DNA of 56,739 nt from Candidatus Bathyarchaeota archaeon (GCA_963697165.1 CAVOMX010000003.1:1-56739), one strand, 5' to 3'; positions 6,001 through 12,000 are shown, numbered from the stretch's first letter. Made by a program: the numbers.

Positions 6001-9000
6001 GTTGAAAATATAATTAATCAACTAACAATTATTAAAAAAGGAGTTGAAAAAGCAAGTAGAAACAATCCTAAGTGTTACAGTAAACAGAATCAGAAAGAAA
6101 TCCAATCAGGAAAAAAAGCGTCTTTTTCTAGAAAACATTTATCTTTAGAAAGCTCATATGAATCAGTTGGTATATCAGAAAATCCAATAAACTTAGTAAA
6201 AGTTGGAGATTCGGGAGACATCTCCATTACTAGTGAAAAAACTGCAAACTCTCTTAATAAAAAATCACATTAACCCTGACCTTCAGTTTTGGTAATGTGA
6301 AAGTTATCCCGGATATGTTAGAATTTTGAATTACACTTCTTGGTTTCTTTCTAACCTTTTGGTTAAATATTCGAAGCGGCATCTTTTTTTACTTTAAAAA
6401 TAGATTTTAGAGGTAGATTGTAAACTGTAGACGCTCAACCAGTTCTTTGTAGCGGTTTCTTATGGTTACTTCTGTCACTTGGGCAATCTCTGCAATCTCT
6501 CTTTGTGTTTTTCTTTCTCCAGTTAATACAGAGGCAATATAGCTAGCTGCTGCAGCAATACCTGTAGGTCCTCTTCCTGAAGTAAGTTTCAATTCTTTGG
6601 CTACAGAAAGAATCTTATGAGCAATCTCTTCAGCTTTTCCTTCCATTGTTAGCTGATTAGAGAATTTAGCTATATATTGGCTAGTTTTTACTGGTGGAAT
6701 AAAATAGTTCAGTTGTTTTAATAGGAAACGGTAGCTTCGTCCAACCTCTTTTTTGTCTACTGTTGAAGCCTGAGAGATCTCTTCTAAAGTTCTTGCTAGT
6801 CCACATTGTCGGCAAGCAACATAAATAGCGGCTGCTGTTACTCCTTGTATAGACCTTCCACGTATGAGACGTTCCTTGACTGCTTTTCGATAAATAACGG
6901 AAGCTGTTTCGAGAATGTTTTTAGGTAAATTGAGATTATTTGCTATCTTTGATATTTCAGAAAGTGCAAATGCAAGGTTTCTTTCTGTTGCATCGGAAAC
7001 CCTAATTCGTCTTTGCCACTTCCTTAGCCTATAAATTTGAGCCTTCTCACCATGAGGGAGACTTTGACCATGGATATCTCGATCCTGCCAGTCGATCATA
7101 GTAGAAAGACCCTTATCATGAATTGTAAATGTGGCTGGAGCTCCCGCTCGTGCACGTTTTGCACGTTGCTCGGCATCAAAGGCTCTCCATTCTGGTCCTT
7201 GATTTGTTAGTTCTGCGACAACTACATAACCACAACCCATGCACACAATTTCAGCAGATTCATTGTCGTTCATTATGCGATTGCTTCCGCATTCTGGGCA
7301 CCTTCGAATGATCGGAGATGATGATATGTTTGCTGCTTTCATTTTTTTTTCCTTCTATATAATCCAAATTTAGAGTGAATTACATATAGAACATGATTGA
7401 TTAGCTGTTCTGTGGGTTATTAATGTATGGTTCACAGTTACGTAAGGTGAGAACGTGGAACCGAAGACATCAAAAAATATTCCAATATGTTTGAGATTTT
7501 CATTCGCAACTTGATCACCGATTCATGGATTATTTTCCGCTCTAAAGATCATGTTTTTTGTAATGCATACATGAAGGACTTGTTCAATTATACACAAAAT
7601 CTATTGTTATTAAATGCGTTTTATATTAACATTTTCTAAAAATAATTAAAAAAGGACAAGTTTGTGGGGAAATCTTTGTGATCGTGTACGGCAAATCCCC
7701 ACTACCTCACCATGTGTGTCTGGGGGTCAGTTTCCTGTGTTTTTATTTCTCACTTTTTACTAAAGTTAGTTTTTCTTGGAAACTTGTTAAGAACTTATTT
7801 GTTCTTTCATCATTTTTATGCTGTTTAAGGCGGCGAACGTTGATGATTCTACGCTTGAGGCAGCAGATTCTATCGCGTTAATGTATAGTAGTCCTTTGTC
7901 AAGGCAAGTGGATGGTATCTTTTCTATTGGTTTGAAAATAGGATACGCTGCACTCCACGTATGATCTAGAATAGTTTTTCCGTTTTTGAAAATATCATCT
8001 AAAAGATCGTTGCCTATCGGTTCCGTTGAGGTAACAGTCACCAATGACTCATCTTTTGTTGATTTATTAATAGAAAATCGAGTTATTGGATCTGCTTCCT
8101 TAGAAGTGAGTATAATAGATGGCAATTTAGTGGAGGAATCTAGATTAAAATACCTTGGATTTACTGCACCCTTCATTAATCGGATGTAGATTTTCTGGTA
8201 TTCACGTGCTTGCCATCTTTGTTTTACAACTCCTTCAAAGGTTATATCAGCGACTTCTAGTGGTACAGCAAGAATCACTCCATCAAAAACTGAAGTATTC
8301 TCACCAACTGAGACACGAAAAGAATCTTTAGACGTTTTCTCGATACTTTTCACTTTGCTTTCTAATTCAACCTTAGAATCGGATGCTTCGAGAAGCTTTC
8401 TTGGCAAGACATCGTTGCCATCTTTGAGACTATAAATTGCTTCCCCATAGACTCCTAGTAACGAAGAGAGCCCAGCAAATCCTCCCAGCTCAGCATTTTG
8501 AGAGTAGATTATCCTTGTGATCGGCGTGATTAGTTCATCAATAAATTTTCTGTCAATACCCATTTCAACGAGAATTTGATCAAACGACATTTTATACCAC
8601 TTGTCAAGACCAGCACTCTCGAAAAGCTCCCAGAAGTCTATCGGCTTCTTTTCCTCTTTTTCGTAAAGTTTTTTTATTTTTCCATTTGCTTCTCTTAACC
8701 TGAGAAGTAGTTTTGGCATACTAAGTTTGTATTTGGTGAACAATTTTAGCATCGTATAGAACATCGGCTGACCTGATTTGAAGACAATCTCAGTTCCATT
8801 CCACACTGCAATATCCATAGGCTCATCAAGTTTCTTTACTTTGAGTCCCATTTCCTTTACAAGGTCGCAGACTGTCTTGTTAGTAGGATTGAAGAACTCT
8901 GCTCCCACCTCACTTGTTACTTCTTTTCCATTGAAAGTAAAGACTCTTCCACCGATTCTTTTTTCCATTTCATAAACAGTTACCTTTGAATACGGAAAAT

Positions 9001-12000
9001 ATTTGCGGGCAAAATATGCCGCAGAACAACCTCCTATTCCTGCACCTATAACCGCTAGATTAACCATTTTACTTCAAACAATTAAGGCAGTTCGGGTAAA
9101 ATAAACGTAACCTGAAGGAAAACAACATAAACTTAGGTTACATTTAATTTACTTATATTGGGGGTTTGGGGTTAAAATTTAATCTCTCTCTTCCGCATAC
9201 GCTCGTTTTACGTGCGCATCTTTTTCGATAACGCTCAATTGTCCACCGATGCCGACCTTTAACTGGAGTTCGCCCTTAAAGGTTACAACACGGGCGTTCT
9301 CAACTTGGATAGTATCTCCCACAGCAACTGTGTCTATTTGTTGGTTCCACAAAGGTAGTTGAATACTTCCAGTTTCATCTGTGACTTTTGCGTTCGCTAC
9401 CATGTTTAATTGTCCTAACCGAGTGAAGACGGTTTTCGGCTTTGGAATTTCAATAACTTTTGCCTTTAAGTTAATTCGGTTCATTCCTAACTTCAAATCT
9501 CTGATCTGTGGGTGTTCAATTTTAACCCTATCCTGAATTTTTTTCATTGATGTCTTTGTGGGAGCAAAATTTTTGAGTGGATTGGTTTCTTTAAGGATGT
9601 GTTTGGGTATGGGGAATTGGGCGACCACTTTGTCACCTTTGGTTATGAGAAAAACGGCATTATCTTGTGTTTTATTCCAGCATTTAATTGAAAGGCTTTC
9701 ACATGTAGATTCTTGGCGTTCCCAAGCTTCAATGAAGCTATTAAAAAAGTCGTTCGAATCGATTCCATATTTCATTGAAATAAGAGCGAGATATTCAAGA
9801 GCCTTAAAATCAGCAAGATTGTGATACCTGCCACGGGGGCGACCTTTTTCCCGTGACACTTTAATTTGCATTTGACTCGTTCCTATTCCCGAAGTTACCT
9901 ATGAACCTATTTAAGGGTGTCTAGAAGAAAAAATCAAAGTATCATAACCTCTAAAATTCACGTCTTAACTTTTAATTTTTTAAAGTATTCCATGATGCTT
10001 CTGAAATTTACATTGGTAATTTGGTTCTTGGTTGTTATTTTACTTATGTACGTTTTATGTTGGGGTTAAAATTTTTACCCAATCGTTTTATCATTTTTTT
10101 ATCAACGATTACATAATACATCTTGAATATTAAAATCGTAGATTAGCCTCAGATTCTACCCTTTAGAAAGAGGGCGAAGGATCATCATGCTGTAGAAACT
10201 ATGATGATGTTGTGGGCTAGCTTCGTTTTAAGGTGATTTCGATTGTTGAAATATTTCTCGAGTTGCTTTCTCCTTCTCTTGGTGGCATCTCTTCGGTTCC
10301 GATGACTACTTTGTCTACTATCATTTCTTTGACGAATTTACGTCGAGCTATTTCGACGGCGTCGACAGCTGTTGTTATTGATCGTCCTCTCGCCTTCACG
10401 GTAGCCTCTTTTACGTCGGATCCGCTGAAAGCAGTTACGATAGCTAACACATAATCCATGGGTAGTTTTCTTCCTACAAATATTATTTTCGAGTCGTTAG
10501 ATTTATTGCTCATTTTTAGATTCTCCGTTGCTTGTGCTGTTAGTGATGAATGGTTGCACTTTTAAAGCCTCTTGTTAAGTCAGAACAAAGGATCAAGACG
10601 AGACCACATCTATATTGCAGACATCTTGCGTGCGAGTGTACGTGAGTTCTAAGTGATTATTTCTGCTTCTGCGTTCAAGGGATCTGTTTTCGTTATCGTT
10701 ACCTTTATGTGGTCTCCAGGCTTTGTGTCGGCAATTAAAATTAAGAACCCTTTGATTCTAGCTATGCCTGCCCCGTTTGGGGTTGTTTCTGTTATATCCA
10801 CTTCATACTCATTTCCTATCTCAACGGGGCATTTGTTAACGAATCTATCACGTCTATTCTTGGCGTTTCTCTGACTTTTTTTCATGGACTTCTCCGACAT
10901 CTTCCTCTTTCTATATATATAGTAATTATTTGTGCCTCTTAAGGTTTAAATGTTCTGAATTTTGTGCCGTCTTCTTTTAACAACTTGATTTTTTTGACTC
11001 TAGAATTCTATACTGTCATGTGCTAACATATTTTTTAACTTAGTTTTTTGTGTGGGGAGGCGAGCGGGAGAGCAGGTTTAAACGCACGGGTACACTAAAC
11101 GTATGGGTACACGCACACGGACACGATTACGTGAGTTTGGGGGATAAATTTTAACCAATAATGGTCCCCGAAGACCATAGCCCCAATCTTTCGGCATAAC
11201 AATTTCGACTCTGTAATTAGCCACTTTACTTGTTCTAGGATTGTTTTGGGTTTTGAGTCCCAGCAATCTGACAACAAAATTAATAATGCATTATTTAGAC
11301 AAAGGCGTCAGCGTTGCGAGTTCTCAGGAATCCTCAGTATATACTAGGAAATAGCAAAGATGAAAAGGGACAATGTGGACACACTACTGAAATGGTGGGA
11401 GTTATAGTATGAGCGAAACAAATCTAGTATCAATTCAGTTGAATGGAGAAAAACAGGATTTCATTTTAAACAAAAAGGACTTCAAAACAGGAAGCAGAGG
11501 TTACCATGCACAGGGAAAGATGCAGATTGGTGACAAACGGTACCAATGCAACATCTTGTGTGTGGAGATAGGCTCAAAACCTAAAGACAAGTAAAAGCTC
11601 ATCTACCATTTTTCACGTAACTTCTCAGGCGATGCTTAGACTACCTGATTTTTTTGAAATAATATTTTATACCAACAAAAAAAGGGAAAGACGCTAGAGA
11701 GGTTTTCCTGCAGACAGGTTTAATCTACAAGATTCATGTCTTGTCCGCAGCAAACCAGAGTTCCGGCGCCAGATTCTATAACTTGCACTTTATTTCCACA
11801 TATCTCACAAAGGTATATTTGTCCTTCTTCAGTCAGGTTCTACACCTCCTAACATACATTATTTTGTTTCAGTAGTTTTCGCACAAAACTTCAAAGTAGC
11901 TTCTTGCGTGGTCACAGACCGGACATTTTTTAGGAGCTTGGTTCCCCTCGTACACGTGACCACAGTTTCTGCATTTCCACTTGATACTTTTGTCTTTTTT

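Follow-up and report, generated by a model that had tools for sequence, protein, structure and literature searches.

Mammalian PCYOX1 and PCYOX1-like (EC 1.8.3.5; structure 9fxq; Barone et al. 2024, PMC11530802) and plant farnesylcysteine lyase, FCLY (EC 1.8.3.6), belong to a family whose chemistry is the cleavage of a thioether beside cysteine and whose known members require O2. The family reaction is an oxidative cleavage of S-prenyl-L-cysteine in which O2 accepts the electrons and H2O2 is formed. According to the published characterization of PCYOX1, this enzyme is selective for C15 and C20 prenyl chains and for a free alpha-amino group, and N-acetylation of the substrate costs it more than 10-fold in efficiency. 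In the mutagenesis reported for it, the Y221A variant had zero activity, so that Tyr221 is essential; Tyr433, which is His in PCYOX1-like, is described as lying at the flavin/cysteine end of the tunnel.

Two other systems are relevant. Bacillus subtilis CmoO and CmoJ are described as following the same logic as that proposed below, i.e., a flavin-dependent reaction breaks the C-S bond of an S-alkylated cysteine, and cysteine is regained; however, their folds are unrelated, there is no homology, and the reported reaction is a sulfoxidation followed by Pummerer-type cleavage on an N-acetylated substrate (PMC10863075). The nearest fold relative outside the family is the nicotine oxidoreductase NicA2 (PDB 5ttj, 6c71), which has the flavin amine-oxidase fold (TMq 0.70-0.73). 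It differs from the protein studied here in its amine substrate, in sharing only 12-14% identity and in having no PF07156 domain. NicA2 passes its electrons to cytochrome c and not to O2; therefore, a protein with the amine-oxidase fold need not be an oxidase.

A full-length PCYOX/FCLY homologue without a leader

The window, i.e., the whole stretch of DNA analysed (56,739 nucleotides from a Candidatus Bathyarchaeota archaeon), carries an intact ORF with an ATG start that encodes 426 aa and is the single copy of its family in the genome. The following features were assigned.

7787..9067, minus strand: homologue of the PCYOX/FCLY-family FAD-dependent thioether oxidoreductases (ORF, PF07156, model and Foldseek)
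9029..9046, minus strand: GAGIGG, residues 8-13, the GxGxxG dinucleotide-binding motif of the FAD Rossmann domain (translation and alignments)
8504..8506, minus strand: TAC codon of Tyr188, equivalent to PCYOX1 Tyr221 (alignment to 9fxq and column count)
7943..7945, minus strand: TAT codon of Tyr375, equivalent to PCYOX1 Tyr433 (alignment to 9fxq and column count)
9097..9105, minus strand: putative archaeal TATA box, the A/T-rich TTTATTTTA, about 34 nt 5' of the ATG (read by eye)

The 426-aa protein is a genuine full-length flavoprotein of the PCYOX/FCLY family, as an earlier note on this DNA had claimed. The Pfam profile Prenylcys_lyase (PF07156) matched residues 102-424, corresponding to profile positions 7-354 of 363, with an E value of 4.3e-50 and 171.2 bits (cut-off, 27); Amino_oxidase and NAD_binding_8 (residues 6-72, E 1.2e-12) also matched. 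The FAD Rossmann signature was present as GAGIGG at 8-13, E33 and GGR at 39-41, and these residues, G8, G10 and G13 among them, were invariant or nearly so in two family alignments. Like mammalian PCYOX1, the protein is a two-domain FAD enzyme: the closest solved relative was 9fxq_A, an ancestral PCYOX1 (E 8.5e-37), colinear over query residues 4-417 at approximately 26% identity, while the second-best solved match, 3lov, covered only residues 4-78. The AlphaFold (AF2) model had a pLDDT of 95.9, and its best Foldseek match was again 9fxq (TMq 0.89, E 1.7e-35), followed by nicotine and amine oxidases at TMq 0.70-0.73. The 29.2% identity to Arabidopsis FCLY given earlier is in line with the 30% found by alignment to P0189, which represents a legume cluster of the same Pfam family named 'farnesylcysteine lyase' by NCBI.

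The catalytic positions of PCYOX1 were found to be largely retained. The residue equivalent to Tyr221, Tyr188, aligned with Y222 of the vertebrate-type representative P0203, and Tyr occupied this column in 118 of 125 family sequences. In the Y375 column, Tyr was found in 107, Phe in 14 and His in 3 of the 125 sequences. All 15 positions conserved in 107-122 of these sequences were kept by the window's protein, and the residues of PCYOX1 that hold the cysteine head group were conserved in archaeal, bacterial and eukaryotic members. Val234 of PCYOX1, however, was replaced by Ser201 (Ser in 9 of the 125 sequences), which counts against the salvage role proposed below. Since the protein is a full-length family flavoprotein that keeps the essential tyrosine, cleavage of the thioether of an isoprenyl-cysteine is its most economical predicted function.

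In contrast to the animal and plant enzymes, the 426-aa protein has no secretory or lysosomal leader. An in-frame TGA at 9076-9074, 9 nt 5' of the ATG, makes a longer N-terminus with a signal peptide impossible, and because the Rossmann motif already starts at residue 8, a leader peptide is absent. No membrane helix was detected in the protein, as no 19-residue segment had TM-like hydropathy. The earlier statement that a signal peptide is lacking was thus confirmed. Compared with mammalian PCYOX1, the protein is without ER or lysosome targeting and approximately 50-80 residues shorter; plant FCLY has an N-terminal leader of at least 30 residues. The targeting leader is a trait of the eukaryotic members and not of the catalytic family. 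A 111-bp gap separates the gene from the upstream gene, and TTTATTTTA within this gap is a possible TATA box, suggesting that the gene may have its own promoter. The GC content around the gene (0.376-0.379) was ordinary for the window.

Distribution and origin of the gene

The gene is a patchy accessory gene that Asgard archaea and a few bacteria also carry. Within the genus, PF07156 was found in 6 of 13 genomes, and within the class in 18 of 401, in agreement with the patchy distribution tabulated earlier. The 220 homologues counted earlier at E<=0.001 were reproduced, the 120 matches listed again being 50-95% identical and carrying Bathyarchaeota names. The family had also been described as nearly absent outside eukaryotes and Bathyarchaeia. 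This description did not hold, since members were present in 12 of 351 Asgard genomes, in the haloarchaeon Halosegnis longus and in Bacillota, Chloroflexota and Actinomycetota, the bacterial members comprising MAGs of Bacillota and Ardenticatenaceae, Nocardioides bruguierae and Atlas clusters mostly of Actinomycetota.

In an unrooted tree, the Bathyarchaeial proteins formed a single clade (support 100/99) nested among Asgard sequences. A single clan of all Asgard-type rows was rejected by the AU test (p = 0.018), and the deeper archaeal diversity of the family was found in Asgard archaea, not in Bathyarchaeia. The best-supported split of the tree placed plant FCLY on the side opposite to the Asgard-Bathyarchaeia clade, and a second prokaryotic clade of the PCYOX family exists. 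With such an unrooted tree, the prokaryotic root that the earlier note had proposed for the family is at most a possibility. Asgard homologues from Hodarchaeota, Promethearchaeota and Hermodarchaeota MAGs were 33-35% identical to the window's protein over the full length, were likewise leaderless and were more diverse. The nesting of the Bathyarchaeial clade among Asgard lineages suggests a transfer, and Bathyarchaeia appear to have gained the gene from Asgard archaea, which is the direction that we infer.

Gene neighbourhoods in relatives

None of the genes around the window's own copy (TFIIB, an SSB-like OB protein, Alba and TRAM) was informative, and no family-wide conserved neighbour was found among the flanking genes of the loci compared. 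In relatives, the surroundings of the gene point to the metabolism of cysteine and of isoprenoids, two themes that were selected from several hundred flanking genes. In Ca. Bathyarchaeum tardum, which belongs to the same genus, and in a Spartina MAG, the PCYOX homologue precedes cysK (460 bits on TIGR01139; cut-off, 351) by less than 50 bp, with both genes on one strand. The next gene encodes a serine O-acetyltransferase (157.6 bits on the EpsC model; cut-off, 150), which in Ca. Bathyarchaeum tardum completes the row PCYOX-cysK-cysE. In a further locus (L031), cysK is 2 kb away, and a CysK-like PLP enzyme adjoins the Asgard copy G695. The cysK-cysE pair of the window's genome is on a different contig from 7787..9067.

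Of the 12 Asgard loci, 3 have a UbiA prenyltransferase at most two genes away, and one of these 3 has a PAP2 phosphatase as well. Among the 41 Bathyarchaeial loci, 8 have such a neighbour, which is directly upstream there; the window's copy has none. The chance of a UbiA neighbour is approximately 1.6% per locus, as estimated from a total of about 2057 ORFs, 4 of which encode UbiA. The Bathyarchaeial pairing was limited to one closely related subgroup, and UbiA was more conserved there than the oxidase; this pairing looks like synteny. An SDR oxidoreductase was found beside two further Asgard copies.

Candidate substrates and cellular role

The reading preferred here, to which a probability of about 0.55 is given, is that the gene encodes a functional FAD-dependent PCYOX/FCLY enzyme serving the salvage of cysteine (and isoprenoid) from S-polyprenyl-cysteine, or the clean-up of the latter, and that it is an accessory gene seemingly derived from Asgard archaea. 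The enzyme would be located in the cytoplasm or peripherally on the membrane. Free S-polyprenyl-L-cysteine (C15-C20) would most likely be bound, with the isoprenoid tail in the long predicted tunnel; the C1-H next to the sulfur would be oxidized to give a thionium ion, which water would split into L-cysteine and a polyprenal. The prenyl-cysteine might arise by endogenous alkylation or from peptides or detritus that the cell imports and digests, and either traces of O2 or a different acceptor might reoxidize the reduced FAD. Both the substrate and the salvage role of the window's enzyme are what we infer from family, fold and context.

Several observations count against this salvage reading. 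The host, unlike that of PCYOX1, is an anaerobic archaeon without known protein prenylation: Bathyarchaeia are described as organisms of anoxic habitats, and archaea are thought, according to one source, to be without prenylated proteins (PMC13734883). Neither cytochrome bd nor a haem-copper oxidase was found in the window's genome (81% complete), which does encode two KatG proteins and rubrerythrin. No protein prenyltransferase subunits were found either: the beta-subunit family Prenyltrans (PF00432) had 0 matches in this 81% complete genome, and the alpha-subunit family PPTA (PF01239) had 0 matches in it and in 4 Asgard genomes, in searches where no positive control passed the family cut-off. 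The Asgard genomes searched contained Prenyltrans-repeat proteins without an alpha subunit.

The earlier note had proposed that the enzyme takes a thioether-linked archaeol (diphytanylglyceryl) or prenyl anchor off cysteine after the decay of lipoproteins or prenylated proteins; in this reading, it would work with ICMT-like and Rce1-like proteins in what would be the archaeal equivalent of a CaaX cycle. Cleavage of a thioether next to cysteine is plausible, as family, fold and Y188 all agree with it, but the proposed substrate is very improbable. Archaeol thioether anchors were indeed shown in Haloferax (PMC12462473), and the haloarchaeon H. longus has a family member; yet PF07156 had no match in the control genomes of Haloferax volcanii and Methanosarcina acetivorans. 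In the same source, lipobox proteins are described as few in TACK and Asgard archaea and AliA as a protein of Euryarchaeota and DPANN, i.e., the lineages opposite to the hosts of the clade. A crude regex screen of the window's genome found a lipobox-like motif in only 6 of 344 signal-like N-termini, most of them unconvincing. The carbon at the thioether of the anchor is a non-allylic CH2 of a glycerol with two C20 chains, and PCYOX1 is selective for chain length; N-acetylation, which has been reported for the lipoprotein cysteine, costs PCYOX1 more than 10-fold in efficiency. Furthermore, the enzyme is intracellular and the anchor is outside the cell, and 7 of the 13 genomes of the genus do not have the gene. 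As for the helper genes, the four ICMT-like matches were recovered, but four rather than three Rce1-like matches passed the cut-off. Because such matches also occurred in 5 (ICMT-like) and 11 (Rce1-like) of 14 control prokaryotes, they carry no weight as evidence. Salvage of cysteine from prenyl-cysteine is more likely than the stripping of lipid from archaeal lipoproteins.

A tentative alternative, the likeliest of the others although still rather unlikely, is that members of the archaeal clade use a small isoprenoid conjugate as their substrate and not a cysteine derived from protein. The conjugate would be a thiol or amine that a neighbouring UbiA-type membrane prenyltransferase polyprenylates on S or N, and the two genes would be partners in membrane isoprenoid metabolism, either making and breaking the conjugate or acting together in a biosynthesis. 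The UbiA proteins near the deeply diverged Asgard copies G516, G626 and G459 form a subfamily of mutual relatives (34-39% identity), the Bathyarchaeial UbiA pairs and the two SDR neighbours are in keeping with this, and the fold family holds many amine oxidases. However, the three Asgard cases are only partly independent, since G516 and G626 also have urocanase in common as further synteny. Close homologues of the Asgard-type UbiA are absent from the window's genome, where the best match reaches 24-26% identity, and the UbiA of Bathyarchaeial type that this genome encodes lies on another contig. The conservation of the cysteine head-group residues across the domains argues for the same head group as in PCYOX1, and the cysK-cysE linkage is better suited to the release of cysteine.

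The source of the substrate could also be foreign, which would be a variant of the cysteine-salvage reading with a eukaryote-like function: detrital eukaryotic protein would be digested, undegradable farnesyl- or geranylgeranyl-cysteine imported and the cysteine recovered. The accessory gene is spread patchily among soil and sediment heterotrophs of several phyla, some relatives carrying signal peptides or lipobox leaders, and near-identical DNA was found in sequencing runs labelled soil, sediment, estuary and permafrost metagenomes. Transporters are present on the flanks of a Promethearchaeota copy, along with peptidase C11 and an S15 fragment, and several other copies have ABC or MFS transporters next to them. 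Nevertheless, no transporter or peptidase was a conserved partner among the loci compared, these neighbour themes were chosen after the fact, and an oxidative reaction fits anoxic sediment badly; this variant seems unlikely.

A bolder and quite doubtful extension is that Asgard archaea, and by transfer Bathyarchaeia, make S-polyprenylated cysteine conjugates via membrane UbiA-type prenyltransferases and not via soluble enzymes like those of eukaryotes, that the flavoenzyme is the breakdown arm of this metabolism and that eukaryotic PCYOX is of Asgard descent. If this were true, the part of the protein-prenylation cycle that serves degradation would be older than the eukaryotes, and a direct test would become possible for the S-prenylation of cysteine in archaea, a modification that they are at present believed to lack.

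Gene, product and active site

The starting observation of the earlier note was an intact homologue of plant farnesylcysteine lyase (FCLY) and mammalian prenylcysteine oxidase (PCYOX1). The gene and the run upstream of it are as follows.

7787-9067, minus strand: PCYOX-like open reading frame, 426 aa, ATG start, uninterrupted
9179-12447, minus strand: row of genes for small nucleic-acid-binding proteins (an SSB-like OB fold, Alba and TRAM), then a rubrerythrin with a rubredoxin-like tail

Because an in-frame TGA lies 9 nt before the ATG, the protein has no possible longer N-terminus; the FAD-binding GxGxxG motif starts at residue 8, and the claim that the protein lacks a leader held. 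Residues 102-424 matched the Pfam family Prenylcys_lyase (PF07156) with 171.2 bits (cut-off 27), besides general matches to Amino_oxidase and NAD_binding_8. No NCBIfam equivalog was found, the best matches being the N-termini of protoporphyrinogen oxidases, far under their cut-offs. Among all PDB sequences, the sole full-length relative was 9fxq_A, the solved ancestral mammalian PCYOX1 (E 8.5e-37, query 4-417), and other matches were confined to the first 80-130 residues. The gene was single-copy in this genome (1.99 Mb, 81% complete), with a GC content ordinary for the window. The reading frame, the upstream TGA and the Pfam, PDB and single-copy results thus confirmed the observation: the gene is real and intact, and the enzyme family to which it belongs is known, though its presence in this host is unexpected. 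As had also been pointed out, automatically assigned names, for example 'prenylcysteine oxidase family protein [Candidatus Bathyarchaeota archaeon]', are already in use in sequence databases.

A first structural model, built from a shallow alignment of 19 close homologues, had a pLDDT of 61.5 and was discarded. The model built from A4, an alignment of 125 archaeal, bacterial and eukaryotic representatives, reached a pLDDT of 95.9 and a pTM of 0.94. Its top Foldseek match was 9fxq (TMq 0.89, E 1.7e-35), followed by nicotine, putrescine and monoamine oxidases at TMq 0.64-0.73. Passages of Barone et al. (PMC11530802) report that in PCYOX1 the Y221A substitution abolished activity and substrate binding, Y433A had a weakening effect and V234W blocked catalysis. 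Tyr221, Tyr433 and Val234 corresponded to Y188, Y375 and S201 of the window protein both in A4 and in the HMMER alignment to 9fxq; as a check of the numbering, the same A4 columns held Y222, Y434 and V235 in the vertebrate-type representative P0203. Across A4, the Tyr221 column contained Tyr in 118/125 sequences, the Tyr433 column Tyr in 107/125 (Phe in 14, His in 3) and the Val234 column V in 64, I in 30, S in 9 and A in 9 of the 125. All 15 of the 15 tabulated positions that are conserved in 107-122 of the 125 sequences were kept in the window protein, and none of its 19-residue windows had membrane-helix hydropathy. Judged by the fold match, the kept active-site residues and the hydropathy result, the protein looks like a catalytically competent, leaderless family member, soluble or peripherally membrane-bound, and is probably active.

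The gene shares its strand with all of its own neighbours: TFIIB, the SSB-like OB-fold protein, Alba, the TRAM protein and, at a greater distance, rubrerythrin. They are functionally unrelated to it and uninformative, in agreement with the earlier admission that the locus offered no support. A putative TATA-like element, TTTATTTTA, would lie about 34 nt before the ATG in the 111-bp upstream gap. At L034, a locus from another family of the order, the oxidase again has the SSB-like gene as its neighbour on the upstream side. Elsewhere in the window (5282-5875, plus strand), a 93-aa frame that has CxxC pairs but matches no family lies 18 bp before a 97-aa DUF4145 protein; the pair is a compact two-gene unit. 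One 151-nt estuary metatranscriptome contig was identical to 7888-8030, and a second was 13 letters off. These contigs were set aside as too little to indicate transcription, DNA carry-over being possible and gene parts uncovered by RNA being uninformative.

Distribution and origin of the family

Occurrence of the PF07156 family in the groups scanned
Genus with the window's genome: 6/13 genomes
Class Bathyarchaeia: 18/401 genomes, 6/131 genera
Asgard phylum: 12/351 genomes over the cut-off
Control genomes: 0/14

The family was patchy in every group scanned. Haloferax volcanii and Methanosarcina acetivorans, both among the 14 controls, gave no PF07156 match. A scan of named genome records with alignment A1, which covered bacterial and haloarchaeal genomes unsystematically, returned 46 loci: 40 Bathyarchaeial or Thermoproteota loci (one just an N-terminal piece), four full-length Asgard loci at 33-35% identity (two Hodarchaeota, one Promethearchaeota, one Hermodarchaeota), one from Nocardioides and one spurious FAD-motif match. 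Near-identical DNA occurred in runs labelled as soil, sediment, estuary and permafrost metagenomes. In several relatives, the gene was in two pieces with internal stops (G362:C1:142977-143970 and G573:C293:7200-8170), and at L045 and L059 two adjacent target frames each likewise represented broken genes. Such decay is expected of a dispensable accessory gene.

An exhaustive profile search gave 561 cluster representatives at E <= 1e-30, and many of the best 150 of these carried eukaryote-type N-terminal leaders. Clusters included legume farnesylcysteine lyases (P0189) and yeast (P0218); further representatives came from Creolimax (P0150) and protist transcriptomes (P0229, P0194). In a FastTree phylogeny of 139 rows, comprising the window protein and those 138 of the 150 best representatives that were 380-640 aa long, two distinct leaderless groups were seen. 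One held the window protein; the other held proteins from Bacillota and Ardenticatenaceae MAGs and the haloarchaeal 'prenylcysteine lyase family protein' of Halosegnis longus, and the Nocardioides bruguierae homologue grouped with this second set. The ESM Atlas contained two clusters with PF07156 in all members, whose known taxa were mostly Bacteria, Actinomycetota being commonest. Since bacterial members exist, the earlier figure of 0.000 of bacterial genomes is correct as a rounded value but does not mean absence.

Forty-nine rows, picked after the FastTree result had been seen, were analyzed with IQ-TREE (LG+C20+F+G4 PMSF). They included the window protein, five further proteins from the Bathyarchaeia scan and nine from named or scanned Asgard genomes, the rest being leaderless cluster representatives and 16 outgroup rows; P0133, P0134 and P0192 were identical to the proteins of the Asgard genomes G516, G626 and G459. 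The Bathyarchaeial proteins were nested within Asgard sequences. They formed a clade of 12 rows (six of known origin and six metagenome representatives; support 100/99) whose sister was a Hodarchaeota/Promethearchaeota group (94/91), and further Asgard lineages branched outside both. The plant, vertebrate, fungal and bacterial rows stood apart from the Asgard-Bathyarchaeia assemblage, which one protist pair joined (98/95). The best tree with the Asgard-type rows as one clan apart from Bathyarchaeia was rejected by the AU test (delta lnL 37.4, p = 0.018), performed under LG+G4 on a 32-row subset, from which 17 duplicate, long-branch or redundant rows had been dropped, and with the group defined after the tree was obtained. 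Our reading of these trees is that Asgard archaea would have held the gene longer and in greater diversity, and that Bathyarchaeia would have received it by transfer. The nearest other families align with this one over the FAD motif alone. Because the tree is unrooted, it is compatible with either direction of inheritance between eukaryotes and Asgard archaea.

Gene neighbourhoods and oxygen

None of the neighbours was conserved throughout the family in the 41 Bathyarchaeial and 12 Asgard loci, and at least three different contexts occurred within the window's genus alone. The recurrent neighbours were picked from several hundred flanking genes; among them are UbiA prenyltransferase and cysteine-biosynthesis genes, as at the following loci.

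L013 (Ca. Bathyarchaeum tardum chromosome) 5910-10043, minus strand: four-gene row in a complete genome of the window's genus
L099 9392-10282, L101 1861-3713 and L104 5606-6445: distinct Asgard UbiA subfamily beside PCYOX-like genes

UbiA lay directly upstream of the PCYOX-like gene in eight Bathyarchaeial loci. All belong to one subgroup (identities of 62-96% for the oxidase and 71-99% for UbiA), and they were therefore counted as one event. Three Asgard genomes with deeply diverged PCYOX-like copies also had UbiA nearby: in G516 it is the adjacent gene and has the same strand, in G626 it is divergent and accompanied by a PAP2 phosphatase, and in G459 it lies two genes off. These three UbiAs were 34-39% identical to one another and about 25% identical to the Bathyarchaeial UbiA, and had no NCBIfam equivalog. 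The chance of a UbiA within four genes of a given locus is about 1.6% (4 UbiA genes in about 2057 frames). At L101 the PAP2 phosphatase gene overlaps UbiA, and both L099 and L101 have urocanase genes close by. In a palsa MAG (L039, 7586-7813), a short frame just upstream of the PCYOX-like gene had a 24-residue match at 79% identity to the Bathyarchaeial UbiA and looks like the remnant of such a neighbour.

In B. tardum, the row runs on one strand from a GT2 polyprenyl-phosphate glycosyltransferase-like gene through the PCYOX-like gene and cysK, with 22 bp between these two, to a serine O-acetyltransferase gene. CysK reached 460 bits against TIGR01139 (cut-off 351). For the acetyltransferase, the EpsC serine O-acetyltransferase model gave 157.6 bits (cut-off 150), and the cysE model gave 164 bits, under its cut-off of 210. 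The same row was present at L053, and a Spartina MAG is likewise given as a carrier. At L031, cysK lies 2 kb from the PCYOX-like gene, and in the Asgard genome G695 a CysK-like PLP enzyme (84 bits, under the cut-off) follows 203 bp after it. The window's genome has its cysK-cysE pair on another contig than the PCYOX-like gene. There, the cysK match (G000:C12:9478-10441) is split at about 10094 into two pieces that lie in different frames, possibly through a frameshift or an error of assembly, and cysE follows at 10546-11487.

Some neighbours were observed sporadically or discarded. An SDR oxidoreductase lay beside two Asgard copies. Peptidase M48 and flavodoxin or ferredoxin genes, each near three loci, were too few to count. 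A trp operon adjoining the gene in one Bathyarchaeial genus was treated as synteny; trp genes (trpE-G-D-C-B-A or trpD-trpC) adjoin it at L016, L017 and L021 of genus g17 and at L104 of Asgard G459 (10972-12952), which may be coincidence or co-transfer. Overall, the hand-picked recurrent neighbours fit both halves of the reaction, cysteine and isoprenoid aldehyde, better than any protein-lipidation system.

The use of O2 by PCYOX had been raised as a difficulty. No cytochrome bd or haem-copper oxidase was detected in the window's genome by searches that found each in 9/14 positive controls. The two KatG genes named earlier were recovered, and a rubrerythrin lies 2.8 kb from the PCYOX-like gene. 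KatG occurred in 8/18 genomes with the PCYOX-like gene and in 51/383 without it. Within genera, the association vanished (with versus without the gene: g1, 2/6 vs 1/7 over the cut-off; g17, 2/6 vs 3/6; g10, 2/3 vs 16/37). The enrichment is therefore lineage-driven, and KatG was rejected as a marker of a link to H2O2. A KatG gene two genes downstream on the same strand, after an amidohydrolase, was found at just one of the loci examined (L019, G216:C7, 7780-12868). After PCYOX1, the next-best fold relative of the window protein is NicA2. As a dehydrogenase, NicA2 passes its electrons to a cytochrome c, so oxidase behaviour does not follow from the fold itself.

Candidate substrates and significance

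The reading favoured here, with a probability of about 55%, is that an accessory gene of Asgard origin would serve to release cysteine from free S-polyprenyl-cysteine. The earlier note had instead proposed the first enzyme for recycling archaeol or prenyl anchors of lipoproteins, with ICMT-like and Rce1-like genes as support. Four ICMT-like genes were indeed present, as were Rce1-like genes (four, not three), but the same searches matched 5/14 and 11/14 control prokaryotes, respectively, and these genes are therefore uninformative. Lipobox, family-distribution and chemical evidence likewise gave the proposal no support. Passages of PMC12462473 describe lipobox proteins as prevalent in Euryarchaeota and DPANN and 'relatively few' in TACK and Asgard archaea, and place AliA (arCOG02177) in Euryarchaeota and DPANN, lineages opposite to those that hold this PCYOX clade. 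Haloferax, the source of the archaeol thioether demonstration, lacks the PF07156 family. In a crude screen of 2057 frames of the window's genome, 6/344 signal- or anchor-like N-termini had a lipobox-like motif, most of them unconvincing. According to passages of PMC10863075, the family oxidizes the C-S bond, giving a thionium ion that is subsequently hydrolyzed; passages of PMC11530802 state that PCYOX1 takes prenyl chains of C15 and C20, that chains of C10 or C3 are not accepted, and that N-acetylation costs it more than 10-fold in efficiency. The lipoprotein anchor has a non-allylic glycerol carbon on the sulfur with two C20 chains, is located outside the cell and, in at least one case reported in PMC12462473, carries an acetylated amino group. 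All the evidence together makes this proposal unlikely, and we give anchor recycling a very slim chance.

Also doubtful is the idea, to which neighbourhood hints and the unrooted tree might point, that the eukaryotic S-prenylation cycle has an archaeal ancestor. As for the prenylated proteins of the earlier note's proposal, no Prenyltrans (beta) match was found in the window's genome and no PPTA (alpha) match in it or in four Asgard genomes, by searches that had no positive control over the family cut-off. CaaX-like C-termini were rejected as prenylation targets, being present in 8/2057 crude frames, about as expected by chance, and in 0 GTPases. Several Prenyltrans (PF00432) repeats occur in giant frames on G516:C234 and G516:C123 (open frames of 1822 and 561 aa); in three other Asgard genomes, partial Prenyltrans matches fall in open frames about 280-300 aa long, and no PPTA was found. 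Two frames of the window's genome without a Pfam match (G000:C12:197548-198036, minus strand, and G000:C14:111490-111909, plus strand) end in the same C-terminal sequence, HQIQNRIGCCGI, and could represent either a repeated element or a duplicated small gene whose tail is Cys-Cys.

PCYOX has been seen as an enzyme of eukaryotes, with a role linked to protein prenylation. Literature searches (archaea, Asgard, family names, accessions, Asgard protein prenylation) found no paper on prokaryotic PCYOX/FCLY members, and the evolutionary analysis in the relevant passages of PMC11530802 sampled Metazoa only. The archaeal PCYOX clade is conserved, leaderless and centred on Asgard archaea. It raises the question of which S-isoprenyl-cysteine compounds exist in archaea, provides small, bacterially expressible orthologues for work on the mechanism, and poses a clean biochemical question, namely, whether thioether oxidation is possible without O2.
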